This document shows, one piece after another, positions 1-39,770 of a stretch of 64,000 bases of DNA. This DNA is from an uncultured Gammaproteobacteria bacterium. Its GTDB lineage: Bacteria > Patescibacteriota > Microgenomatia > Levybacterales > UBA12049. The position numbers and the translations under genes are program-made. The stretch is taken from contig CAZNAA010000002.1 in NCBI GenBank assembly GCA_964571255.1, positions 28,746 through 92,745 on the forward strand. Direction: 5' to 3'. The notes beneath the pieces were generated by a model. The model was not told where the DNA came from. It saw only the letters and a program-made list of their open reading frames with translations, and did no database searches. Within the stretch, counting starts at the first letter, position 1. Each line of letters starts with the position of its first letter.

Positions 1-204
1 CAAAAAGCACTCCTCTCAGTTGTAGCAGATAGAAGAAATATTCCATTCATTACTACCTTTGAATATTTAAACCCTCTTTTTGGAATCTCGCTTTTTTATC
101 TCCCAATTTAAGTGATATTTAATATCTATCAATACTACTTAATATCAACTAATAGATCACTACCGAGTGGGAAGATAGCAGGTAAAAGGAGAATATCAAT
201 AAAA

Positions 205-5865: not shown

Positions 5866-5869
5866 ACAG

Positions 5870-6839: not shown

Positions 6840-6844
6840 ACAGG

Positions 6845-7359: not shown

Positions 7360-7486
7360 AAAATAATTCAAGAAAGAAAAACAATATCCAAGTAGGAAAG
7401 TGAGTTTTACTCAAGTAAACAATTGCGTTTTTTTGAGGAGAGATCCTTTTTTACTCCGTGGCACGTTTTTTTTCCTAGTCTGTGCC

Positions 7487-22309: not shown

Positions 22310-23059
22310 ATGAACAAAACACTTTTTTTCCTAGATCTTCAGATCGTTTTTTTATCTCTCTTTCTTGTTTTATGCGTTATTACCCAAACCTATGCGATCA
22401 CTATGACGAGTGATGACTATATTATTACAGAAGGCAACCTTAACTCGGCAGCAGGCAGGCCAACGAACAGTAATTATAAGTTAGGAGTAACCGTTGGAGA
22501 ATTGGGATCTGGAAGATATAGCGGAACAAATTATACAGTCAGAGCTGGATTTCAATACATTCACTCTATTATCCGCTTCAACTTTACTCTCTCAAGTGTC
22601 TTAATTGACTTTGGAACACTCACACCGACCAATCCAGTGACGAGAACTCAAACGCTAACTATATCTAACGGGTCAGCACATGGATATACGGTTACTGCTC
22701 AAGAAAACCATCCGCTACAGGTTGACTCCAGTGGTGCCCAGATTCCTGATACTACCTGTGACGCAGGGACCTGTACCGAGTCAACAAGTGCTGCTTGGAG
22801 TAATACGCTTACTTATGGCTTTGGCTATCGGTGTGATAACGTATCGGGAACTGATTGTGCTACAGGCTTTACTACAGGAACCTTCTATAAGCAGTTTCCC
22901 AATATGAACGCTAGCGAAACTCCAGTAGGAGTGATGACTGGGGTAAATGTGGGAAGAAACAAGCAAACCCAAATTACGTATAAGGCAAACGTTTCAGGAA
23001 CTCAACCAGGAGGACTCTATCGGAATGTGATTACCTATATTGCCACCCCAACTCTATGA
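22310..23059 (+). CDS. secreted beta-rich surface protein, WxL-domain-like (C-terminus ...YRNVITYIATPTL)
   Basis: 249 aa with an N-terminal signal/TM segment and Thr/Gly/Asn-rich sequence. Its C-terminal motif is shared with the 24101 paralogue. Confidence 0.5.
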   Translation: MNKTLFFLDLQIVFLSLFLVLCVITQTYAITMTSDDYIITEGNLNSAAGRPTNSNYKLGVTVGELGSGRYSGTNYTVRAGFQYIHSIIRFNFTLSSVLIDFGTLTPTNPVTRTQTLTISNGSAHGYTVTAQENHPLQVDSSGAQIPDTTCDAGTCTESTSAAWSNTLTYGFGYRCDNVSGTDCATGFTTGTFYKQFPNMNASETPVGVMTGVNVGRNKQTQITYKANVSGTQPGGLYRNVITYIATPTL

Positions 23060-24066
23060 AACACCTACTCCTTCTTATTACCATTCTGACTATCTTTACT
23101 TTTTTCTTTCCAAGTATGTCTAGTGCACAAGAGATTGGACTAGGAATATACCCACCCATTAGCACTATCGATGCAACACCGCCAGCGACTATTTTAGTAC
23201 CTCTGAGTGTTGAAAACAGCAGTAGTGAACCTTTGACTGTTGAGATGGAGCTCAAACCATTTGCTCCCTCATCTTCAGAGGACGGGACAGTTACCTATCT
23301 ATCAGATGATACCGTCTTTCCGAGTGGAGACATCTTGCTTCTTCAGCGGATTCGAATCATTCAAAACAAGAAACAAGTGAGCAAGTTACTTCTTGCCCCC
23401 AAAGAGATTGCCGAAGTTGATGTTTCTATTCCCCTCTCTAAACAAACGGTTCCAGGAGATTATTACTTCTCTGTTATCTTTACAGGACACCCATCTCTTC
23501 CTGGACCAGAGCAAAATACCCAGTCATCAGTCTCGCAAGCTGGGATTGCCAGCCACATCTTACTCTCTGTAGGGCCAAAAGGAAAGGCTCAAGGAGAAAT
23601 AAAAGAGTTTTCCAGTCCTTTTTTCCTGACACAAGGCCCAGTTCCCTTCACGCTTCGTATAACCAATACCTCTGCTCACACGATTGCCCCAACCGGATCA
23701 CTCTATATAACCAATATGTTTGGTCAAACAGTGGGAAAGGTAGATATTCTCCCTGTTCATGTTCTTTCAAACAGCACCAGACTTACTCCTGACAGGAAGC
23801 AAACAAATGATAATGGAGAGGTCAAAGAAGCACTCTATGAGGAATTTCTCTCTCATGGACCACGAGTTTTATGGCAAGAATCTTTTTTACTGGGAGTGTA
23901 TCAGGCAACGGTTAAAGTAAAATTATCAGAAAACGGTCCTCTTGTTTCAAAGTCCACTACCTTTATTGCTTTTCCTCTCCCACTTCTGATTGGATTTGGG
24001 GTCGTTATTCTTCTCGTTATCACCATTATTCAGAGAGTACGCCTGAAGATAAAATATTCGTATTGA
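23056..24066 (+). CDS. DUF916/DUF3324-like cell-surface protein with C-terminal TM anchor
   Basis: 336 aa. Has a signal peptide and a C-terminal TM segment followed by a basic tail (LLIGFGVVILLVITIIQRVRLK). Size and topology match CscA-like partners of WxL proteins. Confidence 0.5.
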   Translation: MKHLLLLITILTIFTFFFPSMSSAQEIGLGIYPPISTIDATPPATILVPLSVENSSSEPLTVEMELKPFAPSSSEDGTVTYLSDDTVFPSGDILLLQRIRIIQNKKQVSKLLLAPKEIAEVDVSIPLSKQTVPGDYYFSVIFTGHPSLPGPEQNTQSSVSQAGIASHILLSVGPKGKAQGEIKEFSSPFFLTQGPVPFTLRITNTSAHTIAPTGSLYITNMFGQTVGKVDILPVHVLSNSTRLTPDRKQTNDNGEVKEALYEEFLSHGPRVLWQESFLLGVYQATVKVKLSENGPLVSKSTTFIAFPLPLLIGFGVVILLVITIIQRVRLKIKYSY

Positions 24067-24100
24067 CAAGACTTTCTCACACAAAGCATACTGTCAGTAT

Positions 24101-25513
24101 ATGGAAAAATATTTCTCTTTCCTTCGTTACGTTGTCATTACCCTTATTCTGATAACAGGAATGAATCTCGCCACAAAAGACGTCCACGCCTTAGGAACTC
24201 TGGCTAATTTAAAAGATACCATTACGACATCTCGTCCATCCGCTTCATCCCCTTTAACGGCTGATGAAGGAACAAGTTCCTCTATTATTGATATTGCAAA
24301 TAATGGCTCCAGATATTTTGCCTCAGATTCTGCCAAAATTGTCAGAACCTCTAGTGGAGCACAAATTGTCGGAGGACTCTTTGTTGCCTCTCAATCTGCT
24401 GACCTTACTGATGTATATTTGACCACTACTACGGGAACTGCAGCACAAGCTGCAACTGATGTTTTAGTGACTAATATTACTGCACTCCACACGATTCAAT
24501 TTACGACAGCTACTGCTATTCCAACTAGTGGAACGATTGTCATTACTTTTCCAGGAGGTGCCTCAAATATAGCCTCTCCGAGTGCTACTACGTTTTCTTT
24601 TAATGGAATGAGTACATCTAATCCTTCTGACGTGTTATTTAATAATGCCACCTGTTCATCAGTCACTGTCTCTGCACCAACGATTACCTGTACCCTTTCT
24701 GGAGGAGTATCTGCAAGTACAACCGTCACTGTTCTTATTGGGTGCACATCTCAATCAAGTGGAGCATGTACCGTTCAAGCTCCCCGCCTTATTAACCCAA
24801 TTAAGACCAATAGTGCTGGAAACAGAGATTTGTGGACGGTCAATGTCAAAACAACAGATGGAGCAGCTGATTTAGATACGGGAAAAGCACTCATTGGCAT
24901 TATTGAATCAGTTGAGGTGAAAGCTGCGGTTGATAATAGCTTAACCTTTACCATTACAGGAGGATTCTCTAGTGGAACAGCTATAAATAATGGAAATAGC
25001 ACCGGCTGTACGAATAGTGAAACGGTTACTTCAAGTGTTGGCGCAACCAGTACCTCTACCCTGGTTGACTTAGGTATTCTAACCACGAGTGCGATAAATA
25101 TCCATGCTCAGCGAATCAATATCACAACCAATGGGCTTGGAGGATATACTCTCACCGCAACGTCATCAGGACATTTGATTAATAACGCCACAGGATACTT
25201 CATTCCTGATAGTACAACCCCAACAGCAATGACTGCAGGGACAGCCTGGTTTGGACTTCATGCCTGTGGGCTAGATGTAGCAAGTGGAACCTGGGGAACA
25301 GGAGCAACAGGAGGAGGAGCAGGAGCCTTATACGGCTGGCCAACCAAAACCACTGCAGTTACCCTTGCTACAGATTCAACAGGCCCAGTTGATACTTCTC
25401 TTGCAACTGGTAATGGAATAACAAGTGTAGAATATGCAGCTACTGTGTCTGCTGCAATCCCAGCTGGAGCCTATCAAGCTTATGTTACATACGTAGCAAC
25501 ACCAACCTTTTAA
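24101..25513 (+). CDS. secreted beta-rich surface protein, WxL-domain-like (C-terminus ...YQAYVTYVATPTF)
   Basis: 470 aa with a signal peptide and Thr/Ser/Gly-rich sequence. Its C-terminal motif is paralogous to the 22310 protein. Confidence 0.5.
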   Translation: MEKYFSFLRYVVITLILITGMNLATKDVHALGTLANLKDTITTSRPSASSPLTADEGTSSSIIDIANNGSRYFASDSAKIVRTSSGAQIVGGLFVASQSADLTDVYLTTTTGTAAQAATDVLVTNITALHTIQFTTATAIPTSGTIVITFPGGASNIASPSATTFSFNGMSTSNPSDVLFNNATCSSVTVSAPTITCTLSGGVSASTTVTVLIGCTSQSSGACTVQAPRLINPIKTNSAGNRDLWTVNVKTTDGAADLDTGKALIGIIESVEVKAAVDNSLTFTITGGFSSGTAINNGNSTGCTNSETVTSSVGATSTSTLVDLGILTTSAINIHAQRINITTNGLGGYTLTATSSGHLINNATGYFIPDSTTPTAMTAGTAWFGLHACGLDVASGTWGTGATGGGAGALYGWPTKTTAVTLATDSTGPVDTSLATGNGITSVEYAATVSAAIPAGAYQAYVTYVATPTF

Positions 25514-25515
25514 CT

Positions 25516-26517
25516 ATGAACTACCTGCCGCACCTATCACTACTCAAAATTGGACTCACCACATTCTCATTTGGCCTTGTTGTTTCTCTCGTTACTGCCC
25601 CTCTCACTCTCGCTCAAGAATCACGATCTTTTACGGTTATTCCTCCAAGTATCTCTCATAGATTGAATCCTGGAGAAACAACTGAGGGAGTATTACGAGT
25701 CATTAATGACAGTGCAGAACCTCTTACTTTCTCACTCAGTATTCAAGACTATATCGTAGAGGATAATAATGGAACACCTACCTTTGTAACAGACGGAAAA
25801 CTAAGTAACAAGTATTCTGCTGCTTCCTGGATTGGCGTTAGTCCAAATCGATTTACCCTTGCTCCAAAACAAAGAGAAGATCTTGCCTACTTGATTAAAA
25901 TCCCAAAAGATGCTCGTCCTGGAGGACATTATGCAGCTGTAACGTATACTCCTGATGCGAAAGGTACTACCACAGGTTCTGGAACAGCCGTATCAACAGT
26001 TGTTGGAACTCTGATGTATATTGATGTGAATGGAGAGATTGTTGAAAAAGCCAGTGTAAAAGAGTTCTCTTCTCCTGGTTTTTCTGAATATGCCCCGATA
26101 TCTCTTCATACAATTATTCGAAATGAAGGAGACTTACACATTGCTCCCTACGGAACTATCGTTGTTAAAAACATGTGGGGAAAAGTCATTTCCACTCAAG
26201 CTATTTTGAGTAAAAATATTTTTCCTCAAGCTGTACGAGAATTTGAAAATATTGTTGATCGAAAATGGATGTTTGGAAGCTATACAGCTGAATTTACTGC
26301 AAAATATGGACGACAAAATGCCCTCTCTCTCACTGCTTCTTCTACGTTTTGGGTTATTCCTTGGAAAATGATTGTCATCATTATTCTCGCTGTTGCTGTA
26401 GGTATCTTGGGAGTTCTTATGATTAATAAGAAAAAAACGAATTCAGAAGAGACAAAAGAAACAGAAGGAAATGAAGCAAAAGTGGAAGAGACTCCTTCTG
26501 AAACCACCTCTCTCTAA
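25516..26517 (+). CDS. DUF916/DUF3324-like cell-surface protein with C-terminal TM anchor (paralogue of 23056)
   Basis: 333 aa. Has a signal peptide, the FTVIPP...EPLTF architecture also seen in 23056, and a C-terminal TM segment followed by a K-rich tail. Confidence 0.5.
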   Translation: MNYLPHLSLLKIGLTTFSFGLVVSLVTAPLTLAQESRSFTVIPPSISHRLNPGETTEGVLRVINDSAEPLTFSLSIQDYIVEDNNGTPTFVTDGKLSNKYSAASWIGVSPNRFTLAPKQREDLAYLIKIPKDARPGGHYAAVTYTPDAKGTTTGSGTAVSTVVGTLMYIDVNGEIVEKASVKEFSSPGFSEYAPISLHTIIRNEGDLHIAPYGTIVVKNMWGKVISTQAILSKNIFPQAVREFENIVDRKWMFGSYTAEFTAKYGRQNALSLTASSTFWVIPWKMIVIIILAVAVGILGVLMINKKKTNSEETKETEGNEAKVEETPSETTSL

Positions 26518-26921: not shown

Positions 26922-27812
26922 CTAATACCCGACGAACCAGGCATGATGCAATTTTTTCTTTGACGAACCAAACAAAAAGGAGAAAAGACGACTGGAATAA
27001 ATAAAGGTAAAGTGTTGAGGCCAGAGTTTAACAATGAGGATAATAATGAGGATAATCAAGGGTATTCCTACCCACAATAATCCCAATCCTGAGCCTATAA
27101 AAACTCCAATAAGTATCTCCCACATTTTCTGCAGAAACCGGAGAAATTGCTCCCATAACCCAAGCGCTTTTAAAGTAAGAAAACGTGAAGGGGCAACTGA
27201 TGGTTGCCCATTATAAGTCGCATCTGCATAGAGCTGATATACTCCAGCTGGCAAATCAGCAACCGTCACTTCATAATAGCCTTCTGTATCTGCAGTAACA
27301 GTAATACTTCGTCCTCCAACGTGAACGGTTACTTTTGCACCTGGCATAGAATAACCAAAAGCCAAAACGCTTGATCCCGCCGCAATTTCTGACCGTTGTA
27401 ATGCTATCGTAGGAGGGAGAAAGATATTGTCTTTTCGCATACTTGCAATCAGAGGTGGAAAAGTAAAGCAACTATATGATTCTCCTAAGTTGTGATAATC
27501 CTTTGCTTGAAGACAGAAACTTGTTAGTCCTCTATTGATTCGTACTTGAGAGATAGAAAATCTTCCATCAGCCCCTGCTACCGTCCCTCTGTAATATACC
27601 CCATCTATCAATAATCCAACGGAAGCATAGGGAGAAATAAAACCAGAAACAGATAAGAAAAATTCTCCCACCTCTGCACCCACTTTTATTTCTGCTTTTC
27701 CTTGAGGAACATAGGCATGGGTGACTGTTAACGAAAGAGAAAAGAAAAAGATACTCAAAAGAGTACAAAAAAGAACCAATGTAACTAGGGATACAGGCAG
27801 CTTGTTGAACAT
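26922..27812 (-). CDS. membrane-anchored secreted protein with prealbumin/CarboxypepD_reg-like beta domain
   Basis: 296 aa with a signal peptide and a C-terminal TM segment. VTVHVGGRSITVTADTEGYYEVTV is typical of Ig-like transthyretin-fold domains. Confidence 0.45.
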   Translation of the reverse strand: MFNKLPVSLVTLVLFCTLLSIFFFSLSLTVTHAYVPQGKAEIKVGAEVGEFFLSVSGFISPYASVGLLIDGVYYRGTVAGADGRFSISQVRINRGLTSFCLQAKDYHNLGESYSCFTFPPLIASMRKDNIFLPPTIALQRSEIAAGSSVLAFGYSMPGAKVTVHVGGRSITVTADTEGYYEVTVADLPAGVYQLYADATYNGQPSVAPSRFLTLKALGLWEQFLRFLQKMWEILIGVFIGSGLGLLWVGIPLIILIIILIVKLWPQHFTFIYSSRLFSFLFGSSKKKLHHAWFVGY

Positions 27813-28389
27813 ATAAGATATATTTGTATCTAGTCAAAAGGTGAATCCTTTTAAGATGACTCATTTTATTATACGATATCTTGTTATTTGTCACTATCTC
27901 CTTCTTTGAGAAAAAAGAAAGAGATAGATCGTTTTTTTCAGACACTATTTCTTAGATAGCACTTACTTATTTCTTGTGCTAAAGTTTTATTTTTATGACT
28001 CTCAAGATATTGACTGGTTTTGAGCTATTTTTCTTACAAAAGTGTTTTTTCTCTTTTATCATCTATTCTCTTTTTATCATTCAATACTTTATACGAACGA
28101 TCATGCCTGCGCTCTGTAAAAATCAAATACTATCCTTCTTTTTTCTTGTTTTTTTCAGGAATAATAAATATATCAAAATGGGTCATTTAGCCACGAGTTA
28201 GCCTATTACCAAAGTATTGACAGACCCTCTTTTCTCCCTCAAAATAAAGAGTGAACTTTGAAATTTCTGAAGAAAGTGAATAGCCAAGATAATCGGTATA
28301 ATCCGTATAATCTTGAAGCTAGAAAGGTTTCTCTTGTGAAAATCAGAAGACTGCCTTACTTCCCCCACTTTTCACAGAAAGGAGCAATC

Positions 28390-28527: not shown

Positions 28528-28637
28528 TTCCCTATGAAACACTTATTTTTCTCAAAGACCAAATTGTGCCTAAAAATAAATACATATATTAATAAACACT
28601 TCCAGGCAGGAAGATAAACAAAAATGCGAGAGATCGC

Positions 28638-31600
28638 ATGGAACACATAGAAAATTTTCAGTTATATTTAATTCAAAAAGGTTCTTCTCGTCCTACCGTA
28701 AAAAACTACATAGCTGATATTCGAAAGTTTATTAAGTTTCTAGAAACCACTAGCTCTTTCTCTCCAAGTGCTATCACCTCTGACTCAATTGCTGCCTATA
28801 AAACCCATCTTTCCTCCCTTCAGACCTCTCCTTCATCAATTGACAGATATCTCTCCAGTCTTCGTAAATTCACCAGTTTTTTGAGTGAAAAAAAACTTTT
28901 AGCCATTAATCCATTTCTGATTACTGAAGAAAAAGAGGTGGATATCTGGGAGTTGGGTGGATTTAAAAACGCGCTCCATACCCAGCACGTTTCTCCACTC
29001 ACCGTCAAAAATTACTTTCTAGACATCAAACAATTCCTCTCTTGGATAGAGAAAGTGGATACAAACATAACAAAAGATAACAATATCTCCCGCATCACAC
29101 CTGAAGTTGTAGAAACATATAAATCTCGCCTTCTTTCTCAAATGGAGCTCTCTCCTCTATCTGTAAATCGAAAACTTTCTTCCCTTCGAAAATACCTTTC
29201 CTATCTCTATGCAGGAGGACATCTAAATACGCTTCCTCAGATTAAAAACCAGCTAGAAGCAGAGCTTATAGATCAAAAAGGCTCAGAAGATATCATTGAA
29301 TTCCCGGTTATTACAGAAACCCCTCACACTCCTGAGGCCACACCGGTAGTTCCCTCTTCTTTTGCACCTATTCGTCTCACTAGGGCAAGTAAGAAGGGAC
29401 TCAATTACCTTTTTGATCTAGCGGTTATTACTCCTTTAGCCTCACTTTACAGTAAAGGACACATTCTTTTTAGAAAATCTCAAGGAAAAAATGGTTTATT
29501 TGAAGCAAAACAAATCAAAAAGTCTTTTGCTCTTTCCTCTTTTCTTCCAAGTAATAAGAAATTTGAAATATTCCATACCTTTATCACCAAAAATCCAAAA
29601 CAGCTGTTTAAAGGACAAATTTCCAATATCTCAAAGTCATTTTACGCTCCCCTGTCTCTCTCAACCACAGAGTTTCCCCTCCATAAAAAGATTTGGCATC
29701 ACCTACGTCATACTCGTCCAGCCTGGTATGACAAATATCACTCCTATCCACTCACTCACTACTTCCACTTTGCCGTACTCATGATTGTCATCACCATTGT
29801 GGGAACAGGCATGTACTCAGTTCTTTTTGACTCTGGAAAGAAAAACCCTGCACTCGCAGCACTGCCTACTGCCCCACCCCGTATTCTGTCCTTCCAAGGA
29901 AGGCTCACTGACTCTTCTGATAACCCCATTACGACGTACAAAAACGTCCGTTTTTCTATTTATGATGACAGCGCAGCAACTGGTTCAGGAAACCTGCTAT
30001 GGCAAGAGCTTCAAGGAGTAACGCCTGATGAAGATGGAGTTTTTTCCGTTCTAATGGGAAATACCGTTACAACGTGTGCCAACCCATTAACTGTGGCCAC
30101 GGGACCTTGTGCTATTCCCTCAACTCTTTTTACCGAGAACGCCACACTTTATTTGGGAGTAACCATTGAGAATGATAGTGAGCTAACACCTCGACAACAA
30201 GTCGCAACCGTTGCCTATGCAACTAATTCAGAAACACTCCAAGGACTTCCTCCATCAACAGCAGCAGGCGCCGCAACCAATAACGTTGTGCTGGCACTAG
30301 ACTCAAGTGGGAACTTGACCATTGGCGGAAGTGCTACCCCTACCTTCCAAGCCTCAGGAGGGCAGTTCACACTGTCAGGAACGGTACTTAAGATAACAAC
30401 AACAGCTGGAAGTAACAGTAATGTTCAAATCACTCCTGATGGACTTGGAAAAGTCGATATTCAAAAATCGATTATAAACTCTGGCGTTAATGGACCTTTG
30501 ACTACAGCTGCAGGCGCAGTCCAGGTTGATGACTTATTTGCTGTTAACGCAACCTCTTCTGGTCAATCTGCCTTCACACTCAATCAAGATGGAGCAGGAT
30601 CTCTTTTCTCTGCATCAGCATCTGGAGTCAATCGATTTGTCATTCGAAACGATGGAAATGTAGGCATTGGCTCAACAACACCAACAGCTACACTTGACGT
30701 CGTAGGAACAACGAAACTATCTAGTACCCTCACCCTTTCCTCACTCACTGCTAACGGTGGAGTTATTTACACTAACGGCTCAGGAGTTGTTGCCCAAACT
30801 GCAGTTGGATCTAGTGGCGAGTGTCTTCAATCAATTGGTGGAGGAACACCTATCTGGGGAAGCTGCACAGGAAGTAATGGGAGTAAATGGACTATTACGG
30901 CTGGTGCAATTCATCCTAATAACGTAACACTTGACGCACTTATTGGTGGAAACAGTACAGCGAGTGCTAAGTTTGGCTTTATTAACGTAGCAGGAGGAAC
31001 ACCTACTGCTACCATTTCTGGAAACCTTGCACTTGCTGTCCCAACAGGAGCAGATCCTGCTACTACCTACTCAGTTCTTAACGGAGGAACAATTAATTTT
31101 CGAACCAGTGTGGGTGGAGACAGCGGATTATCCAGCAGATTATACATTGCCAATGCAGGAAACGTTGGGATTAACTCTACATCTCCAACCAATGGCTATA
31201 TTCTTGATGCTGTAGGACGGGGAAGATTTTCAACAGGTTTATCTGTTGGAACAACAGCAACAACAAACACGGTAGAGATTGTGGGAACAGTAAATCAAGC
31301 TACTGGACAAGTAACGTTTGGAGGAAATGTTGATGCCACCTCAGGGGTTGACGTAACAGGAGCCTCACTAACTGTTGGTGGAGCTAACTTTTCTGTCACT
31401 ACTGCAGGCTTAGTCACCACAGCTGATGACGTGGCTATCAACGGAGGAGACATCACAACCAGTGGTACATCTTTCAATCTCCTTAACACAAATGCAACCT
31501 CTATTAACTTCGCCGGAGCTGCTACTGGTACTTTAGCTATTGGAAATACCTCTGGCACTACTAATCTTCTTGGTGCCAATGTTCGATTAGGAGATACCTC

Positions 31601-34600
31601 AAATGGAGTTAATATAACTAGCGCTGGTATTATTTCTGATTTGAATGGGAACGTTACGGTTCAGGATCATTTGGTTCCTCAAGCAGATGCTACGTACGAT
31701 TTAGGAACCACAGGACTCCAATGGAGAAATGCCTATGTATCTGGAAGTATTTGTTTTGCTGGAGGAACTGACTGTACCTCTTCCTTTTCTAGCTTAGGAG
31801 TTAACTACTGGAATATCACTTCAGGGACCCTGCAACCCAAAAATGCAACACTTGATCTTTTAATCGGAGGAACAGCAACAACGAGTGCTGATTTTGCCTT
31901 CATTAATGTTGATAGCGGAAATCCCACTGCTTCCATTGGTGCTAATTTAGCTATTGCTGTCCCAACTGGTGCTAATCCTGCAACCACGTATTCTGCTTTT
32001 AACGGAGGAACAATTAATTTTCGAACCAGTGTTGGTGGAGACAGCGGGGCTACGAGCAGGCTCTTTATTGCGAATAATGGAAATATTGGAATTGGAACAA
32101 CTACTCCTGGGCAAGAGTTAGATGTAAATGGCGATATTTTAGTGGGCGCTGGAAGTACTATTGATACTCGAGCTGCAGGTACTCTGACTATTGGTGGAAC
32201 TACCCAAACGGGATTAACAGTTGGAAGAACTGGCACTTCAACAGCAATTGCTGGTAACTCTTCTTCCTCAATTGACTTTGGTAACTTTGATGTAACGGCA
32301 GCAGGACTAGTGACAACAGCTGATGATGTGGCTATTAACGGAGGAGACTTAACAACCTCTGGTTCTTCTTTCAACCTTTTAAATGCTACAGCAACGAGTA
32401 TCAACTTCGCTGGTGGAGCAACAGGAACATTGGCTATTGGAAATACCTCTGGCACTACGAATCTTCTTGGTGCCAATGTTCGATTAGGAGATACCTCAAA
32501 TGGAGTTAATATAACTAGTGCTGGAATCATTACTGATTTAAATGGAAATGTGACGGTTCAAGACCATTTGGTTCCCCAAGCAGATAATACGTATGACCTT
32601 GGGACAACAACACTCCAGTGGAGAACTATTTATGCAGGAACGAGTATTTGTTTTGCTGGAGGAACTGATTGTACCTCCTCATTCTCGACTCTTGGGGTGA
32701 ATTACTGGAATCTCGCCTCAGGTACTCTTCAACCGAAGAACAGCACCCTTGATTTACTAGTTGGCGGAACAGCAACAACGAGTGCTAAGTTTGGCTTTAT
32801 TAACGTAAATAGCGGAACTCCAACCGCTACTATTTCTGGAAACCTTGCCCTTGCTGTCCCAACTGGAGCTGATCCTGCCACTACCTACTCTGCTTTTAAT
32901 GGAGGGTCAATTAATTTCAGAACCAGTGTTGGAGGAGATGCTGGGGCAACAAGTAGACTCTTTATTGCCAACCTTGGAAACGTTGGAATTGGCTCAACCA
33001 GTCCCACGCAAGCACTTGACGTTGTGGGAAACATTACTCTAAGCGGGACATCAGGACTTGCTCTTACGGGATCTGATGCTGATTTGACATTCTCAGGAAC
33101 AAGTAATCACGATATTACCGCTAGCAGTGGAACTCTTCGAATAGGAGCTGCCACTCTTACTGGAGCTCTGAATGCAAGTTCTAATACTATCACCAATGCC
33201 ACTTCCTATAACGGACTTGTTATTACTGCCAATACAGGAGTTATCACCACTGGAACATGGAATGGAACTGCAGTTGGTGCTACGTATGGAGGAACTGGAA
33301 TCAATACCAGTGGATCAACAGGAGTTCCCTATATCACAAGTGGAACCTGGAGTGTGGATACCAACGCCCTCACTGCGCCTCACGGAGGAACAGGACAAAC
33401 TATTTATGCAGTAGGAGATACCTTGTATGCCTCAAGTACTACTGCCCTATCAAAACTCACCATTGGCTCAACCGGACAAGCCTTAACTGTTTCTGGAGGC
33501 ATACCTGCCTGGGCAAATACCAATACTTCAGCATTTGGGTTGTGGGACCAAGCGAGTGGAGTGATTAACCCAAAAAACAGTACCCTTGATTTACTAGTTG
33601 GCGGTAGTGCGACAACGAGTGCTAAGTTTGGCCTTATTAATGTCAATAGTGGAACTCCAACGGCTACTATTTCTGGAAATCTTGCCATTGCTGTCCCAAC
33701 TGGATCAAACCCTGCAACCACCTACTCTGCTTTCAATGGAGGGTCAATTAACTTCAGGACTTCCGTTGGTGGAGATACTGGGGCAACGAGCAGACTATAT
33801 ATTGAAAATCTAGGTAACGTAGGAGTTGGAACAACGACACTTGATCGAAAAATGTCAGTAGCTGGAGACTTTATTGCTGGAGGAACCGGTACTGGACTCA
33901 TCATGACAGGAACAACGTTAACATCAGGCTTTTACCCAGGTGCTTCTGTTGTTGATCACGATATGATCATAAAAAACGGGACAATTAATGGAAATATCTT
34001 TTTTCAAACAGGAGCAGCTACTACGAGACTAGCAATTGATAATGTAGGCACTCTTACAGCTTCAGCCTATACAACAAATGGAGGACTTCTATATACCAAT
34101 GGCTCAGGTGTTTTTAGCCAAACTGCAGCAGGAAGCAGTGGTCAGTGTCTCCAATCCAATGGAGGTGGAGCTCCTACCTGGATCACCTGTGCAACTGGCA
34201 GTAAATGGACAATTACAGCAGGAGGAATTCATCCTAATAATGCAACACTTGATCTCTTTATCGGAGGAACTGCAACTGCTTCATCAAAATTTGCTTTTAT
34301 TAATGTCAATAGTGGAACTCCAACTTTTAGAGCCTATAACTCAACCAGTGCTCAATATCTCTCTCTTAATCATGATGGGACAGATGGAAATATTACCGCC
34401 TCAACCGGAACCATTAACATTGGACAAGGTGGAGGAACGCTTTACTTAGAAACAGATATCAAAAACGATACGACCAATTATGCAGGATTTGTTCAGATCA
34501 GTGATAAATTATTGGTTCAAGGACCAACTGAGGCGAGTGCTAATTCTCTGGCTATTTTAGATAACACAACAGCAGGTGCTGATATTTTAACTGCCTCAAG

Positions 34601-37600
34601 TGCGGGAACTACTCGGTTTGTCCTCACTGGTGTTGGAAACGTTGGGATTGGGACTAATCTTCCCCGAGCAAGCTTAGAAGTTGTGGGAGATGCGAGTGCA
34701 TCAGGATCACTCGTTTTGAGAAACGCCTCAAGTAATCAGATTGAATCCATGAATGGCTCTCCCCTTTCTTTTTGGACTTCAGTGGGTGGAGATACAGGAC
34801 TCACTGAGAGAATGAGAATAACGAGTAGTGGAAATATTGGGATTAACTCTACCTCTCCAACCACAGGCTATATTCTTGATGCTGTAGGACGGGGAAGATT
34901 TTCAACTGGTTTATCTGTTGGAACAACAGCGACAACGAATACCTTTGAGCTTGTTGGCACCATGAATCAAGCCAGTGGTCAAGTCACCTTTGGTGGGAAT
35001 GTAGATGCCACGAGTGGATTAGATATAACAGGATCCTCTCTTACTGTTGGAGGATCTAACTTTTCTGTCACTACTTCTGGTGCTGTTACTGCAGAAGACA
35101 TCGCAGTGAATGGTGGAGATATCACAACTGATGAGACTACATTTAATTTAGTGAATGCTACAGCAACGAGTATCAACTTCGCTGGTGGAGCAACAGGAAC
35201 ATTAGCCATTGGAAACACTTCTGGCACTACTAATCTTCTTGGTGCTAACATCCGATTAGGATCCAGTAGTACGGGGATTAATATCACCAGTGCTGGTATC
35301 ATCAATGACATTGATGGAAATGTAGTGGTTCAAGATCATGTAGTTCCTCAAGCCAATAATACGTATGATTTAGGAACAGCCAGCTTGCAATGGAAAGATT
35401 ATTATGGCATTGGTACTGCATATTCAGCTGATTTTAAAGATACCAATAATACTGCCTATTACCTAGATCCTGCAAGTACCACAGATTCACTTGTCATCAA
35501 TGGACAAGTACGAATTGGAGGAAGTTCAACTGGTGCTGGAGGAGTAACTCTTGAAGATAACGAACAAGAAGGAGTCCCAGGAAGTATAAAAAGTGGTGCT
35601 GGAAGAAACAATCTTTTGGCAACTGCAGGATATATCATGTCTCCATTTGGAGGATTTGGAAGATACGAAAACTACGTGAGATATTCTGAACAATTTGACA
35701 ACCAAGGATTTTGGGCTCGAAGCGGATTAAGTGTTGTTCCAGATGCCGTGCAAGGACCAAATAGTCACGATACTGCTCTAGTAACCGCTGATGTGATTAG
35801 TGATGATGGGACACCTAACGGAACACTCACTCAATCATATCCTGGGACCATAACAGGAAGTACTGTTTGGACTTTTTCTGTTTGGCTTCGAAACGTACGA
35901 GCAGCTGAATCAAGTTATCAAGCTGCCACGGGGAATGTCATTTTAAGCTTAGTAAGTAATGGAGCTGGAGCTAGTGCTGCAACGACAACGATTGCTGTCC
36001 CTTCAACTTCCTGGAAAAGATATAGTGTTACCTATACTGTCAATGGAACATCCCCCACTGCACTCATTGCTCAAATTGACTACCAAGGGGGAGCTAGTAC
36101 AGAAGTTGCAGTCTGGGGAGCACAACTTGAAAAACAAGCAGCACCAAGTGTCTATGCACAAACAACTGATAAATTTATTCCAACCGGCCGAGGCTTAGTA
36201 GCAACAGGAGTTGGCCCACATCTTCTCCAAACAGGCAACGGAGGGACAGCTACGCCTTCGGCTAGTGGCGTATTTGTAGCAGCTTCAGGGGGAGTATACC
36301 AAACAAGTCCAAACAAGAATATTTTTGAACTCTATAATAGTGATGCAAGTGCAACTAACAATACCTCAAGTATTGGCTTTTTGGCTAACAGAGCGGGAAA
36401 TACTGCTACTCAAATTGCTTCCGTTTCTGCAATTATGACTGATGCCACTGCTACTGCCTATACTGGAGCACTCTCCTTCTCGACCATGGCGAGTGCAGGA
36501 ACTGGACCAACAGAAAAACTCCGAATTACTGGAGATGGAAATGTGGGGATAGGTACTACATCAATTGGATCTAAACTCACTGTTGTCGATAACTCGACAA
36601 CATACGCTCAAAACATAGCCCAAAATAACACCTCTGGACATGGTTTATATCTTTGGACCAATAACAATTCAACTTTTGATTCAATCCTAGTCCAAAATAG
36701 CGCTTCACAAAACATACTTAACCTAAAATCAAATGGCAATTTAGGAATTGGAACAAATAGTCCGGATGAAAAACTCCATATCTCAGGATCTAGTGCTGGT
36801 GATGGAGCTCATATTGGTAATATTTATACTGGAGTCTGGGATAATAATACCGATTATGGAGTATTTGTCCATAATTCTATAAAAGCAACGTCTGGTAGCT
36901 ATGCCCTACTCCAACAATCCAACGGTGCCACTTTTCTTAACGCAGCCTCAGGCCAAGCTATTAAGTTTAGGATTAACAACTCTGATTATATGGCTCTTGA
37001 CTCTGGTGGCAATGTTGGCATTGGCACTACAGGATCTTCTTACGGAAAATTACAGGTTTCAGGCGGTGATATTGTGCTTGACGGAGCTAATACTAACGGA
37101 GGTGAATTATTTGTATCAGCAAATGGCAACGGTATTATAGGAGCATCAGTTAGAGCAAACTATGGAGATTTACTTCTTGGCTATAATCTCAGAGGTCAAG
37201 CTGGTAATGATAACTACTATACAAACTCAACAGGATCTGCAGGCTATGGAGGTATCGAGGTTGCCTACCAAGGAAGGATTAGTTTTTATGGTGCTAATGT
37301 TTCAACCACTGCAGGATCTACTGTAACACCAACAGAACGTATGCGCATTGATACGGCAGGCAATGTTGGCATAGGGACTACCACAACAAGTTCATATAAA
37401 CTTACTGTTAATGGAGGTATCCAATCACTCGACTATGGTGCTGCAGGCACGGCCAATATTATCATCGGTGATGACTCGTTTTTTACTGATATCGATACGA
37501 GCAATGCCGTGGGACTATATGGTACTAGCGATAATACAAAAGGTTGTCTAAGACTAGGCAATACCTCTGGACAGGAACTTTGTGGTAGTAGCGGAAATAT

Positions 37601-39770
37601 TGGAATAGGGACAACAGCAGCACGAAGAAAACTGTCCCAAGTATATACCTGTGACGGATGTTCTTCAACATCGTTTGTTAACTACCATACCGATGATGAC
37701 TCAAATCAAGGAGTACTTCTTCTAGGTATTGGTACAGCTAGTACAGGAACAGGTACTCGTTTTGTTAAATTTTTTGCAGGAATTGATGATGGAACTGATG
37801 ATTATGGACAAGCGAGTGCTGATGGTGTCGGAAATATTCATATCAATAATAATTCTGTTGTTTTTGACACCGCAGGTACAGCTGATTTTGGAGAATATAT
37901 GGAGATGGGTGAAACTGTCGAAGCAGGCGATATCATATCTGAAACAAGTAATAAAGGGACAAAAGCAAAAGAAGTGGATCATGCAATTGGAGTTATCTCA
38001 CGAACCACAAGCTTTCTGGGAAATAGTCGAATAAGCAATAATCCTAATACAGATATTGTAGGATATGTCGGGCAAATCGAAACGAAAGTTTCAACAGTAA
38101 ATGGGACCATTCACCGTGGAGACAGAATTACGACAAGCAATATCCCGGGAATAGGACAAAAAACTACAAGTGCAGGACAAATTGTCGGAGTAGCTCTGGA
38201 AGATTTTGATTCAAATAATCCTTCTCAAATTATCCCTTGTCCAGATGGTACGGATCCATCCATCAAGTGCGGAAAAATCATGCTCTATGTAAATCCATCT
38301 TGGTATGATCCAGACGTTTATATTACCAGCGCAGGTGATCTTAATGTTTCTTTTGAAAACAATCAATACGTTGCGAGAAACGAAGGTTCATTAGTAACGC
38401 GAATGGGTTCTTTTGCAACAGCTGTTGTTGCCAATCTTACAGCAGGAGCAATCCAAGCTCAATCACTCACTGTTTCTGGCCTTAGCACTCTGACTACTCT
38501 TTCTGCTCAAACTATTACTGTCTCTGGAAATTTCACTACGTCTTCACTCTCTGTTGCAACAAACAGTATTACGATTGCTGGACAGTCTCTTAATGACTAT
38601 ATTGATAGCAGGATTAGTAGCGCCATTGAATCAGGAGAACTTGTTTCTCCACTCGCCTCTGATTCAGCAACAGTAAAAGCAGGGAAAGTAATTATTAAGC
38701 CTCTTATCGCAACGACTGAACCTGTTTTGGAAGTTGAAGGAAATGCCTCAATCACTGGCCAATTAGCTACGAATAGCTTAACGACAACGGATGCTACAGT
38801 TTCAGGAACTCTCCGAGTAGATACGCTCATTGCTGATAACTTGAGTGCTCTTGAGGCACAAGTTGCCTCCCTCTCTGCTGGATCAACTGCTATTACCCTA
38901 CCAAGTGAAGAGTCGATTGCATCACTTATTGCAACAGGGATTCAATCAACGTATGCTGAGATTGCCTCCCTTTCTGCTGGAGTGGCTTTTGTTCCTGATC
39001 TTAAAACAGACTTTCTGCAAGTAAACCAAGGATTGATCGCACTTGCTCCATCTAGTCTTTCAGATACTTCAATTACGGGACAACTCTCTATCAATGGCTC
39101 ACTCATTCTAAGCGAAAATAGTGTAAACGTACTTGGAGCTGACTTTCATATCCAACCCCTCAGACAAGGCGGAGTCTCCTTTGAGGGAGGACTCATCACG
39201 ATGGATACTGATGGAAACTTGTATACAGCAGGAAACGCAACCTTTGCTAAAAATGTAACTGTTGGAGGGAATCTGGCAACAAATTTCCTGTCTCCTATTC
39301 CGGGAAATGACTTAGAGATCACTCTTCCTGCAACCAGTACTCAACTAGCCCAAGGCACCGGCTCAAGTTTCGTAGTCAAAAACGCCTCTGGATCAGGAGT
39401 ATTATCGATAAATCAACTAGGAGACCTCGTTGCTAGTGGAGCTGGACAGTTTAAAGAATTAGCAGCTTCATCTCTTAATATTGTTAGAGGAGCACAGGCT
39501 GATACCTCCTTTAACGAGACAGTTGCCTCTGGATCTGCTGGGACAGGAATTGTCACTGCTTACTATACAGAAAGAACCATTGTGTCACCTTTTGTTACAG
39601 AAGATTCACTGATTTATATTACACCAACATCAGATACAAGTGGCATTACTCCCTATGTTTCTCGCCAAGTAGCACATGATGCTCAGAACGAAGTTCAAGG
39701 CTCATTCACCGTTACTCTTCCCCAAACAAGTGTCAGCGATATCAAGTTTAACTGGTGGATTGTGAACTAG
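28638..39770 (+). CDS. giant (3710 aa) membrane-anchored surface-fibre protein
   Basis: A single uninterrupted ORF. The cytoplasmic N-terminus carries two tandem phage-integrase-N-terminal SAM-like (core-binding) domains at aa 1-95 and 105-200. One TM segment (HYFHFAVLMIVITIVGTGMYSVLF) lies at about aa 385-408. About 3300 aa of Thr/Gly/Asn-rich extracellular repeats follow. NVGIGTTxPxxKL tail-fibre-like motifs recur in the C-terminal third. Confidence 0.85.
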   Translation: MEHIENFQLYLIQKGSSRPTVKNYIADIRKFIKFLETTSSFSPSAITSDSIAAYKTHLSSLQTSPSSIDRYLSSLRKFTSFLSEKKLLAINPFLITEEKEVDIWELGGFKNALHTQHVSPLTVKNYFLDIKQFLSWIEKVDTNITKDNNISRITPEVVETYKSRLLSQMELSPLSVNRKLSSLRKYLSYLYAGGHLNTLPQIKNQLEAELIDQKGSEDIIEFPVITETPHTPEATPVVPSSFAPIRLTRASKKGLNYLFDLAVITPLASLYSKGHILFRKSQGKNGLFEAKQIKKSFALSSFLPSNKKFEIFHTFITKNPKQLFKGQISNISKSFYAPLSLSTTEFPLHKKIWHHLRHTRPAWYDKYHSYPLTHYFHFAVLMIVITIVGTGMYSVLFDSGKKNPALAALPTAPPRILSFQGRLTDSSDNPITTYKNVRFSIYDDSAATGSGNLLWQELQGVTPDEDGVFSVLMGNTVTTCANPLTVATGPCAIPSTLFTENATLYLGVTIENDSELTPRQQVATVAYATNSETLQGLPPSTAAGAATNNVVLALDSSGNLTIGGSATPTFQASGGQFTLSGTVLKITTTAGSNSNVQITPDGLGKVDIQKSIINSGVNGPLTTAAGAVQVDDLFAVNATSSGQSAFTLNQDGAGSLFSASASGVNRFVIRNDGNVGIGSTTPTATLDVVGTTKLSSTLTLSSLTANGGVIYTNGSGVVAQTAVGSSGECLQSIGGGTPIWGSCTGSNGSKWTITAGAIHPNNVTLDALIGGNSTASAKFGFINVAGGTPTATISGNLALAVPTGADPATTYSVLNGGTINFRTSVGGDSGLSSRLYIANAGNVGINSTSPTNGYILDAVGRGRFSTGLSVGTTATTNTVEIVGTVNQATGQVTFGGNVDATSGVDVTGASLTVGGANFSVTTAGLVTTADDVAINGGDITTSGTSFNLLNTNATSINFAGAATGTLAIGNTSGTTNLLGANVRLGDTSNGVNITSAGIISDLNGNVTVQDHLVPQADATYDLGTTGLQWRNAYVSGSICFAGGTDCTSSFSSLGVNYWNITSGTLQPKNATLDLLIGGTATTSADFAFINVDSGNPTASIGANLAIAVPTGANPATTYSAFNGGTINFRTSVGGDSGATSRLFIANNGNIGIGTTTPGQELDVNGDILVGAGSTIDTRAAGTLTIGGTTQTGLTVGRTGTSTAIAGNSSSSIDFGNFDVTAAGLVTTADDVAINGGDLTTSGSSFNLLNATATSINFAGGATGTLAIGNTSGTTNLLGANVRLGDTSNGVNITSAGIITDLNGNVTVQDHLVPQADNTYDLGTTTLQWRTIYAGTSICFAGGTDCTSSFSTLGVNYWNLASGTLQPKNSTLDLLVGGTATTSAKFGFINVNSGTPTATISGNLALAVPTGADPATTYSAFNGGSINFRTSVGGDAGATSRLFIANLGNVGIGSTSPTQALDVVGNITLSGTSGLALTGSDADLTFSGTSNHDITASSGTLRIGAATLTGALNASSNTITNATSYNGLVITANTGVITTGTWNGTAVGATYGGTGINTSGSTGVPYITSGTWSVDTNALTAPHGGTGQTIYAVGDTLYASSTTALSKLTIGSTGQALTVSGGIPAWANTNTSAFGLWDQASGVINPKNSTLDLLVGGSATTSAKFGLINVNSGTPTATISGNLAIAVPTGSNPATTYSAFNGGSINFRTSVGGDTGATSRLYIENLGNVGVGTTTLDRKMSVAGDFIAGGTGTGLIMTGTTLTSGFYPGASVVDHDMIIKNGTINGNIFFQTGAATTRLAIDNVGTLTASAYTTNGGLLYTNGSGVFSQTAAGSSGQCLQSNGGGAPTWITCATGSKWTITAGGIHPNNATLDLFIGGTATASSKFAFINVNSGTPTFRAYNSTSAQYLSLNHDGTDGNITASTGTINIGQGGGTLYLETDIKNDTTNYAGFVQISDKLLVQGPTEASANSLAILDNTTAGADILTASSAGTTRFVLTGVGNVGIGTNLPRASLEVVGDASASGSLVLRNASSNQIESMNGSPLSFWTSVGGDTGLTERMRITSSGNIGINSTSPTTGYILDAVGRGRFSTGLSVGTTATTNTFELVGTMNQASGQVTFGGNVDATSGLDITGSSLTVGGSNFSVTTSGAVTAEDIAVNGGDITTDETTFNLVNATATSINFAGGATGTLAIGNTSGTTNLLGANIRLGSSSTGINITSAGIINDIDGNVVVQDHVVPQANNTYDLGTASLQWKDYYGIGTAYSADFKDTNNTAYYLDPASTTDSLVINGQVRIGGSSTGAGGVTLEDNEQEGVPGSIKSGAGRNNLLATAGYIMSPFGGFGRYENYVRYSEQFDNQGFWARSGLSVVPDAVQGPNSHDTALVTADVISDDGTPNGTLTQSYPGTITGSTVWTFSVWLRNVRAAESSYQAATGNVILSLVSNGAGASAATTTIAVPSTSWKRYSVTYTVNGTSPTALIAQIDYQGGASTEVAVWGAQLEKQAAPSVYAQTTDKFIPTGRGLVATGVGPHLLQTGNGGTATPSASGVFVAASGGVYQTSPNKNIFELYNSDASATNNTSSIGFLANRAGNTATQIASVSAIMTDATATAYTGALSFSTMASAGTGPTEKLRITGDGNVGIGTTSIGSKLTVVDNSTTYAQNIAQNNTSGHGLYLWTNNNSTFDSILVQNSASQNILNLKSNGNLGIGTNSPDEKLHISGSSAGDGAHIGNIYTGVWDNNTDYGVFVHNSIKATSGSYALLQQSNGATFLNAASGQAIKFRINNSDYMALDSGGNVGIGTTGSSYGKLQVSGGDIVLDGANTNGGELFVSANGNGIIGASVRANYGDLLLGYNLRGQAGNDNYYTNSTGSAGYGGIEVAYQGRISFYGANVSTTAGSTVTPTERMRIDTAGNVGIGTTTTSSYKLTVNGGIQSLDYGAAGTANIIIGDDSFFTDIDTSNAVGLYGTSDNTKGCLRLGNTSGQELCGSSGNIGIGTTAARRKLSQVYTCDGCSSTSFVNYHTDDDSNQGVLLLGIGTASTGTGTRFVKFFAGIDDGTDDYGQASADGVGNIHINNNSVVFDTAGTADFGEYMEMGETVEAGDIISETSNKGTKAKEVDHAIGVISRTTSFLGNSRISNNPNTDIVGYVGQIETKVSTVNGTIHRGDRITTSNIPGIGQKTTSAGQIVGVALEDFDSNNPSQIIPCPDGTDPSIKCGKIMLYVNPSWYDPDVYITSAGDLNVSFENNQYVARNEGSLVTRMGSFATAVVANLTAGAIQAQSLTVSGLSTLTTLSAQTITVSGNFTTSSLSVATNSITIAGQSLNDYIDSRISSAIESGELVSPLASDSATVKAGKVIIKPLIATTEPVLEVEGNASITGQLATNSLTTTDATVSGTLRVDTLIADNLSALEAQVASLSAGSTAITLPSEESIASLIATGIQSTYAEIASLSAGVAFVPDLKTDFLQVNQGLIALAPSSLSDTSITGQLSINGSLILSENSVNVLGADFHIQPLRQGGVSFEGGLITMDTDGNLYTAGNATFAKNVTVGGNLATNFLSPIPGNDLEITLPATSTQLAQGTGSSFVVKNASGSGVLSINQLGDLVASGAGQFKELAASSLNIVRGAQADTSFNETVASGSAGTGIVTAYYTERTIVSPFVTEDSLIYITPTSDTSGITPYVSRQVAHDAQNEVQGSFTVTLPQTSVSDIKFNWWIVN
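30880..35400 (+). repeat. five or more tandem coding repeats (~920 nt / ~307 aa) inside giant protein 1
   Basis: Near-identical nucleotide blocks recur at about 31561 and 32461 (CTTCTTGGTGCCAATGTTCGATTAGGAGATACCTCAAATGGAGTTAATATAACTAG). The peptide KWTITAG.IHPNN.TLD...FINV..GTPTA...FRTSVGGD recurs. Confidence 0.8.

Follow-up and report, generated by a model that had tools for sequence, protein, structure and literature searches.

The stretch of DNA analysed here (the window, 64,000 nucleotides of contig CAZNAA010000002.1, assembly GCA_964571255.1) carries a giant gene whose product is a membrane-anchored, phage-tail-fibre-like surface protein with a Xer-type DNA-reading domain present twice at its N-terminus and no recombinase catalytic domain. 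The protein runs from two core-binding (CB) domains through a basic linker and a single transmembrane (TM) helix into some 3,300 residues of tail-fibre-like sequence. The source organism is a Levybacteria-type bacterium belonging to the candidate phyla radiation (CPR), and the window is a segment of a CPR chromosome that also encodes LeuRS, ArgRS, Rho, MreB, ComEA/ComEC, a sortase and tRNAs. It is proposed, tentatively and at a little short of an even chance, that the fibre mediates attachment and that its cytoplasmic tail serves as a membrane-tethered DNA-binding module, following the logic of ToxR and CadC. An earlier reading of this DNA, made from the sequence only, had described a giant surface fibre of 3,710 residues; the open reading frame (ORF) of 3,710 codons is indeed uninterrupted, and all seven peptides quoted in that reading were located, at residues 25, 46, 68, 89, 123, 153 and 176.

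The sequence-only reading had also placed two tandem integrase-type SAM-like domains in the first 200 or so residues, and Pfam, NCBIfam, structure prediction and structural comparison all agree. Phage_int_SAM_1 matches strongly in two stretches, residues 4–93 and approximately 113–192 (E 6.2e-22, 78 bits against a gathering cutoff of 22.3), the SAM_4 and SAM_5 models match the N-terminus too, and the domains of the tail are genuine Phage_int_SAM_1 family members. The XerC, XerD, XerA and XerS models of NCBIfam match solely through their first 100 or so positions, out of approximately 295, with XerC, XerD and XerA scores of 56–81 bits against whole-protein cutoffs of 220–335. Within Pfam and NCBIfam the N-terminus is matched by the Phage_int_SAM families alone, with no OmpR-type winged helix. 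Moreover, the Phage_integrase catalytic domain (PF00589) has no match at E ≤ 1 across the whole 3,710 residues, as had been claimed for it, and because this domain was looked for and is absent the protein is not a tyrosine recombinase and cannot recombine DNA.

An AlphaFold2 (AF2) model of the N-terminal region, built on 46 homologues, consists of two four-helix bundles with predicted local distance difference test (pLDDT) values of 93–98, the helices of the first spanning residues 2–13, 18–35, 48–60 and 65–84 and the same pattern being repeated at 106–192. When the model is compared with the PDB by Foldseek the top matches are all CB domains, namely those of XerA (5hxy, root mean square deviation 1.4 Å over 85 columns), IntI4, lambda Int, Cre and 3nrw. 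The two bundles, CB1 and CB2, share 42% identity (E 1e-14) and are therefore taken to have arisen by internal duplication. Sequence searches of the PDB returned no match with the 200-residue tail alone and two marginal ones with the whole protein. The best PDB match of the family profile is chain 14 of 9i5v, a 401-residue protein of the Porphyromonas gingivalis ribosome annotated as RaiA, the first 100 or so residues of which align with the CB domain (E 1e-9) and 34 residues of which are modelled on the ribosome. This chain is suspected to be a recombinase–RaiA fusion and is of no use as a precedent for a CB–fibre protein.

Alignments of 46–68 sequences reveal a set of invariant or nearly invariant residues, which in CB1 comprise T20, K22, N23, Y24 and D27 of helix B together with R70, S73, R76, K77 and F78 of helix D, and in CB2 T122, K124, N125, Y126, D129, F133, W136, Y161, N177, R178, K179, L180, S181, S182 and R184. 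The family signature (T[VI]KNYxxD; NR[KR]LSSLR[KR]F) agrees with the Xer consensus, XerA having TIKEY for example, and is kept in relatives with one or three CB domains. In the XerH–difH complex the N-terminal four-helix bundle enters the major groove of the DNA and gives most of the base-specific contacts. Judged by alignment, the conserved residues of the fibre protein are polar or basic and fall at the canonical DNA-facing Xer positions of helices B and D in both domains. The mean net charge over 68 sequences is +4.3 for CB1, +4.3 for CB2 and +12.6 for the linker. Purifying selection on polar and basic, putatively DNA-facing residues, in combination with the charge, would be expected of a module that has kept its nucleic-acid binding, short of being proof of one.

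In the AF2 model the linker has one further helix, at residues 243–281 (pLDDT approximately 80). Beyond it, a single TM helix had been claimed for residues 385–408, and one helix is present, but hydropathy places it at residues 375–397, approximately ten residues earlier. This segment is the sole Kyte–Doolittle peak above 1.4 in the entire protein and coincides with a helix at residues 371–396 in the AF2 model. The flank preceding it is basic and His-rich, and an N-terminal signal peptide is absent. A single TM segment with a basic N-terminal side and no signal peptide leads to the prediction of a signal-anchor topology with the N-terminus inside, in which the CB domains would be cytoplasmic and the fibre would be exposed.

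The remaining 3,300 or so residues had been read as a repetitive, tail-fibre-like extracellular part with approximately five tandem repeats of about 307 residues and NVGIGTT motifs, and the PHROG match and the repeats bear this out. Four of the repeats are separated, start to start, by 921, 897 and 837 nucleotides (307, 299 and 279 residues) and a fifth copy is more distant. Tandem Repeats Finder was blank for them as the period of approximately 900 nucleotides exceeds its limit, and a plain self-BLAST returned the identity match only; the repeats were delineated by a direct-repeat search and by self-comparison of the protein. They represent a lineage-specific expansion of the fibre shaft. Twelve motifs of the GNVGIGT type (GN[VIL]G[IV][GN][TS]) occur in the protein, and the ectodomain is rich in Thr, Gly, Ser, Ala and Asn. 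Its opening motif, LAALPTAPPRILSFQGRLTD, is the best-conserved extracellular motif and is kept even by distant relatives whose CB domains number one or three. The Peptidase_G2 match (PF11962) has an E value of 7e-6 and 26.0 bits against a cutoff of 25, covering just positions 45–99 of the 228 in the profile; the same family is also recorded for relatives, and the motif is conserved in the ectodomain alignment. AF2 modelling of the C-terminal 721 residues gave a mean pLDDT of 45 with two small β islands predicted confidently, the last 80 or so residues being modelled as a β-sandwich (pLDDT approximately 80).

A protein in which a DNA-binding-type fold adjoins a giant fibre had been singled out as an unusual architecture; the architecture is there, but it is no one-off, being common to a large and conserved family whose members have one to three CB domains. 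When one genome was scanned for each GTDB species, relatives were confirmed in at least 268 species genomes, and the best 80 of these at least 268 relatives come mostly from Levybacteria, with some from Saccharimonadales, Shapirobacteria and Paceibacterota. The taxon labels of many metagenome-assembled genomes are unreliable, and the title ‘uncultured Gammaproteobacteria’ on some loci looks like a placeholder. An exhaustive profile search gave 673 clusters (50% identity) at E ≤ 1e-30 with lengths of 1,300–6,048 residues, and in nearly all of the 150 best clusters the match begins within the first few residues. Related ORFs have a modal length of approximately 1,350–1,600 residues, others span 2,231–3,603 residues, and seven exceed 3,760 residues and run off the locus. 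At the short end, three relatives with a single CB domain (P0059–P0061) are complete at 896–1,099 residues and another (P0063) has three CB-like units; all four have the same TM helix, the LSFQGRLTD start of the ectodomain and the C-terminus FNWLIVN.

This breadth also bears on whether the N-terminal 200–400 residues might be a separate, degraded integrase gene or pseudogene that mis-assembly or a frameshift has joined to the fibre. A search with the first 420 residues returned Patescibacteria proteins only, mostly titled ‘site-specific integrase, partial’; several of these entries are short (400–700 residues), and the gene is split in two long-read assemblies, as such an artefact would predict. 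However, the CB domains and TM helix lie in one frame with a long ectodomain, in a single continuous ORF, in approximately 70 independent loci from different species, and the 673 clusters have the module at the very start of their long proteins. The short database entries stop at contig ends, and the few stand-alone calls of 415 or 677 residues are frameshifted, the next ORF in L001 beginning inside the conserved NLSFQGRLTD. The linker and both CB domains are, moreover, under purifying selection. Chance falls far short of explaining the fusion, and the probability of an artefact is negligible; the separate-gene explanation is excluded by the continuous ORFs, the frameshift origin of the short calls and the clusters. 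Because the ORFs are continuous in so many loci and the short calls are frameshifted, the window protein is regarded as a member of this conserved family that has been expanded by its shaft repeats.

Upstream of the gene lies a leader element that had gone unnoticed in the sequence-only reading. It was found by k-mer enrichment in the 500 nucleotides upstream of the fibre gene in 67 loci and has the consensus gATAATcnG-TATAATCcG-TATAAT-CTCGAgGCTAa (its tail also given as CTCGAGGCTAA), in which three direct repeats of 9 bp precede a conserved tail. A position weight matrix gave 77 hits above 18 bits on both strands of 1.37 Mb of related loci, every one of them upstream of a fibre gene, and the element lies no more than 900 nucleotides upstream of the gene in 75 of 86 loci. 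A metagenome scan using the motif only retrieved 35 stretches, in 28 of which a CB–fibre N-terminus follows on the same strand 38–726 nucleotides downstream; six others end within 313 nucleotides of the element and one, with a GC-rich FtsX-like ORF downstream, looks chimeric. The fibre gene was recovered, therefore, in all 28 of the cases that could be evaluated.

In 56 of 63 related loci a canonical promoter of the form TTGACA-16..18-TATTCT (-10 pattern TA(T/C)xCT) lies upstream of the repeats, at a median distance of 27 nucleotides, and the idea that the TATAAT repeats are themselves a -10 box was rejected on this account. With the promoter upstream, the element is placed in the initially transcribed region, the transcription starts being predicted ones. 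RNAalifold predicted zero base pairs in the consensus of 40 aligned leaders, for which reason a structured-RNA reading was dropped, and the leader matches nothing in Rfam, whether gathering or E-value thresholds are applied. A second leader motif, an inverted pair of the 8-mers TGTGAAAA (28335–28342) and TTTTCACA (28369–28376), is found upstream in 50 of the 67 loci, compared with at most 28 in shuffles. The repeat unit TATAA resembles the inner dif-arm pentamer, which we take to be CATAA from the E. coli dif site; in AT-rich sequence of such low information this is a weak lead.

Between the leader element and the fibre gene is a small ORF of 45 codons with no Pfam hit, whose pattern MK.YKVG.D...FWI..I.LSFF.SQ..LLF is kept in six related loci (L074, L029, L059, L057, L044 and L037). 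Most loci with the small ORF have an unusually long distance from element to ATG. The notion that it forms a cassette between two copies of the element was rejected, as long-leader loci have no second copy. In one locus, L044, the promoter–repeat segment points the opposite way to the fibre gene and its three GATTATACA units are perfect; a degenerate forward copy of the element stands at the usual position, such that the two copies (9517–9560 and 9910–9932) flank the small ORF. DNA inversion may be what this single case reflects. In other lineages, the relatives that have one CB domain or three have no triple repeat, and in two single-CB relatives, L085 (4755–5504) and L086 (2467–3207), a divergent PaaX-like regulator stands upstream in its place, which suggests a different regulatory solution in those lineages.

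The start of the giant gene has features of its own. A small perfect palindrome, ATGCGA-GAGA-TCGCAT (28624–28639), overlaps the start codon, and there is no obvious Shine–Dalgarno sequence. In many relatives CTGCC(C/T)(T)ATG precedes the start; the window keeps CTGCCTTAC at 28351–28359, which may mark the place of the ancestral start.

Taken together, these features can be assembled into a mechanism. The protein would be a type-II, N-in, membrane-anchored and probably trimeric surface fibre of the phage-tail-fibre kind, the cytoplasmic end of which would be a domesticated and duplicated Xer-recombinase CB module that has lost its catalytic domain. The tail would perform no recombination and would still bind nucleic acid, most likely double-stranded DNA, such that the fibre touches a host or substrate outside the cell whilst the tail holds or regulates specific DNA inside. 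The best candidate target would be the three 9-bp repeats of the gene's own leader, leading to autoregulation or to recruitment of the locus to the membrane; this target is plausible because direct repeats spaced approximately one helical turn apart would suit tandem domains on a single polypeptide. The single inverted locus, L044, is weak evidence that the element need not be read as RNA in one orientation. That the domains were recruited for anchoring or regulation and not for recombination had been suggested before, and this fits both the absent catalytic domain and the selection on the putative DNA-contact helices. It is rather unlikely, on present evidence, that the family constitutes a new class of membrane-tethered transcription factor, in which the fibre would be a sensor of host contact or mechanical force and the CB tail would sit on the repeats of its own leader and possibly on other sites. 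Were this so, the state of attachment would be passed directly across the membrane to DNA, a very costly gene would be autoregulated or its locus tethered to the base of the fibre, and this would be the first known case in which the core-binding domain of a tyrosine recombinase has been domesticated to regulate on its own as a DNA-binding module.

Several points weigh against a DNA-binding tail. The topology is predicted from hydropathy and the positive-inside rule alone, and because the model of the C-terminus is poor the trimeric fibre is suggested by profile hits. The conservation in helices B and D partly reflects needs of the fold that are common to all Xer CB domains, and isolated CB domains, deprived of the clamp that the catalytic domain provides, could have a low affinity for DNA. 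A CB copy number that ranges from one to three is harder to reconcile with an operator of fixed geometry than with avidity or generic binding. The CB signature persists in distant relatives in the absence of the triple repeat, and so the conserved function of the CB domains cannot depend on the element. The element itself could be the binding site of a different regulator, or it could work as single-stranded RNA.

If the tail does not bind DNA, its CB domains may have been re-used as a protein–protein docking module by which the fibre is anchored at its base to some partner in the cytoplasm, such as the cytoskeleton, FtsK/Xer or a secretion or assembly factor, or that oligomerises the tails. 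RodZ, a bitopic protein whose cytoplasmic helix-turn-helix (HTH) binds MreB and not DNA, has the same N-in layout with a DNA-binding-type fold, and MreB is encoded in the window. The N-terminal domains make protein–protein contacts in recombinase synapses, and a long fibre held by one TM helix would be expected to gain from an internal anchor; the persistence of the CB signature in relatives that have no leader repeats and its variable copy number also suit docking. However, the conserved residues are polar or basic and lie at the canonical DNA-facing positions of helices B and D, the whole tail is strongly basic, and no conserved cytoplasmic partner gene is found nearby, the conserved neighbours all being secreted or membrane proteins. 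Docking is considered unlikely whilst being the main rival explanation.

The two other explanations concern the leader. The tail could bind the 5′ leader of its own mRNA, thereby tethering the message to the membrane or repressing translation in an autogenous control of a costly protein, and the N-terminal domains would indeed be the first to leave the ribosome. Such a role would suit an element that is specific to the fibre gene, lies a median of 27 nucleotides downstream of a canonical -10 box in the predicted transcribed leader, and is conserved in primary sequence without secondary structure, as are protein sites in single-stranded RNA. It is quite improbable nonetheless, since the transcription start sites are predicted ones, the element is inverted in one locus, and CB domains read the major groove of double-stranded DNA, for which we know of no RNA-binding precedent. 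Alternatively, the tail could be the targeting subunit for a recombinase encoded elsewhere, with the leader repeats acting as recombination or inversion sites and the fibre being phase-variable. Phase-variable surface structures under the control of tyrosine recombinases are well known, fimS being an example, the CB domains are recombinase-derived, and L044 has its entire promoter–repeat segment inverted, a degenerate copy in forward orientation occupying the usual site. This is very improbable, as only one of approximately 100 loci is inverted and the repeats are direct, whereas tyrosine recombinases require inverted arms on either side of a spacer. Moreover, flanking inverted repeats were not found in the window or in other loci, the conserved neighbourhood holds no recombinase catalytic gene, and the long-leader loci have no second copy of the element.

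The coordinates of the gene, its leader and its conserved neighbours are collected in the table.

Table. Features of the giant fibre gene and its surroundings; positions are those of the window, residues those of the fibre protein.
Feature	Position	Residues	Strand	Evidence or remark
Pam-pilus-like operon (probable)	22310..26517		+	upstream of fibre gene; orthologues upstream in 58–67 of 83 loci
Ig-like/CarboxypepD_reg membrane protein, divergent	26922..27812		-	Pfam; in L001, L003 and 30 of 83 loci
Candidate sigma70-like promoter, TTGACA-17-CAAAAT	28217..28245		+	consensus scan only
Leader element, GATAATCGG-TATAATCCG-TATAAT-CTTGAAGCTAG	28288..28322		+	no further copy in the 64 kb of the window
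Second leader motif, inverted pair	28335..28376		+	8-mer enrichment
Small ORF, 45 aa	28390..28527		+	strong ribosome-binding site AAAGGAG; C-terminal hydrophobic helix
Giant gene	28638..39770	1-3710	+	CB–CB–linker–TM–fibre
Core-binding domain 1, Xer-type four-helix bundle	28641..28922	2-95	+	Pfam PF02899/PF13495/PF13102; AF2 pLDDT 96–98
Core-binding domain 2, duplicate of CB1	28953..29213	106-192	+	second Pfam stretch; pLDDT 93–97
Basic linker (predicted cytoplasmic)	29223..29759	196-374	+	YSxFPPxRLxQK, GKPVF, NIxKxFYAPLxIST and RxTRPxWYKxYHSY conserved
Single TM helix, signal-anchor, N-terminus inside (predicted)	29760..29828	375-397	+	hydropathy
Membrane-proximal conserved ectodomain	29850..30737		+	segment of residues 400–700 in 76 of 83 loci
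Tandem repeats, approximately five of about 300 aa	30735..35507		+	self-comparison, 50–84% identity between units
Phage tail-fibre-like region	36282..37277	2549-2880	+	PHROG phrog_9942 ‘tail fiber protein’, E 2.5e-15
Peptidase_G2 / intramolecular-chaperone autoproteolytic-type motif, ADFGEY...	37869..38027	3078-3130	+	Pfam PF11962
Conserved C-terminal module, ends ...KFNWWIVN	38385..39770		+	in 48 of 83 loci; short complete relatives end FNWLIVN
~10-TM protein with C-terminal TPR repeats	50658..52775		+	downstream of fibre gene in L001, L002, L085 and 32 of 83 loci

The gene sits in a neighbourhood of conserved synteny, the order being comEA–comEC, (LeuRS), a five-gene cluster, the divergent Ig-like membrane protein, the fibre gene, the ~10-TM/TPR protein, an M23/LysM peptidase and Rho. 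The cluster upstream is probably the Pam pilus locus of CPR bacteria, its products being matched to the PamA/B pilins and PamC/D chaperones by description only. Two of its ORFs (22310–23059 and 24101–25513) encode secreted proteins with a common C-terminal TY(I/V)ATPT(L/F), and the products of two others (23056–24066 and 25516–26517) each begin with a signal peptide, have a TM helix at the C-terminus and match WxLIP_PGBD below threshold (E 0.007 and 0.003). The pilin-like ORF of 470 residues has no match in a PDB sequence search. The Pam operon of CPR bacteria has been described as encoding pilins and membrane-anchored PapD-like chaperones; a protein termed ‘tail fibre-like’ consistently co-localises with it (Troman et al., bioRxiv 10.64898/2026.03.03.709456). 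In that work the protein is mentioned once, as a node of a neighbourhood network, and an integrase-type N-terminus, topology and leader element are absent from the description. Downstream of the fibre gene, the TM part of the ~10-TM protein has no family match and the protein is possibly a glycosyltransferase-like membrane protein. The comEA–comEC pair is syntenic with the fibre gene across lineages, and ComEC is split into two adjacent or overlapping ORFs, Competence and Lactamase_B (16065–18153, minus strand), as it is in L085 and L086.

Elsewhere in the window, a second giant ORF (39841–50604), which directly follows the fibre gene, encodes 3,587 residues with an N-terminal signal-anchor and long repeats rich in Thr, Gly, Ser and Asn, for which no Pfam or PHROG family was found; because it occurs in just three of 83 related loci it is regarded as a lineage-specific addition outside the conserved locus. 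A region of approximately 2.5 kb (4930–7486), between a 191-aa ORF and the sortase gene, has no convincing ORF and contains GC-rich patches at ~5100–5700, ~6280–6600 and ~6850–7400 (0.44–0.46 against ~0.39 in the flanks). A search of Rfam with it was blank apart from a chance miRNA hit, and the region could hold gene remnants or at least one large non-coding RNA with structure. A VirD4/TrwB-like coupling-protein ATPase (57043–59199, minus strand) lies between two DUF11 surface-repeat proteins, and the segment 56367–62373 could be a remnant or a minimal module for DNA or protein transfer. In two of the single-CB relatives, L084 (8166–8522) and L086 (6681–7064), a bAvd/23S_rRNA_IVP gene directly adjoins the fibre gene. 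Diversity-generating retroelements have Avd as their accessory protein; no pair of template and variable repeats was found in the available DNA of the Avd-adjacent relatives.

CPR/Patescibacteria depend on physical attachment to host cells, and we know of no mechanism by which contact is sensed and relayed inside their cells. A family that links a host-facing fibre, through one TM helix, to a Xer-derived DNA-reading domain provides a concrete hypothesis of surface-to-genome coupling that is amenable to biochemical testing. The tail and the 35-bp element are small enough for an electrophoretic mobility shift assay without cultivation of the organism. If the coupling were true, it would provide a fresh case of the domestication of a recombinase domain. 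Moreover, the mis-annotation of fibre genes as ‘site-specific integrase, partial’ inflates the counts of mobile elements in CPR genomes.

When the family is set against known systems, the tail is closest to the Xer-type recombinases (XerC/XerD/XerA; PF02899), having the sequence signature, the fold of four helices and the conserved residues of helices B and D in common with them. Unlike these enzymes, the fibre protein has no catalytic domain or RHRHY active site, its CB domain occurs in one to three tandem copies, and beyond these come the basic linker, then the TM helix and then a fibre that is thousands of residues long. The layout predicted here is also that of ToxR, CadC and TcpP, in which a DNA-binding domain at the cytoplasmic N-terminus is joined by a single TM helix to an extracytoplasmic part that faces the surroundings. 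In contrast to the OmpR-type winged helix and small sensor of that class, however, the fibre protein has a recombinase CB fold and a fibre of 1,000–6,000 residues, and it would at most work like the ToxR class without being a member of it. RodZ is likewise bitopic with a DNA-binding-type fold on the cytoplasmic side, but its HTH binds MreB, its external part is small, and there is no relationship in sequence or fold.

The exposed part resembles phage tail fibres and tailspikes with an intramolecular chaperone, either of the phi29 gp12 type with Peptidase_G2 or of the endosialidase type, through its PHROG match, its Peptidase_G2 match just above the cutoff, its Gly/Thr/Ser/Asn-rich repeats and its NVGIGT motifs. 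Unlike those fibres, the gene resides in a cellular chromosome with conserved synteny, and its product is predicted to be anchored to the cell membrane by a TM helix and not to a baseplate. The giant genes of Omnitrophota (bioRxiv 10.1101/2023.11.21.568195) are likewise very large, repetitive, predicted to be extracellular and implicated in cell–cell contact; their products have signal peptides and C39 or S8 peptidase N-termini, and a recombinase-type domain is unreported for them. In the literature searched, which included work on Pam, giant genes and CPR protein families, no description was found of the CB–fibre fusion, of the breadth of the family or of the leader element. The Pam-adjacent ‘tail fibre-like protein’ of Troman et al. 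probably belongs to the same gene family, judged by description and context, since a pam-like operon lies upstream in most of the related loci and the taxa match (Microgenomatia and Saccharimonadia). The family has thus probably been glimpsed already as a neighbour of the Pam operon; its leader element is new here, and its recombinase-derived tail was likewise without a description in the literature searched.

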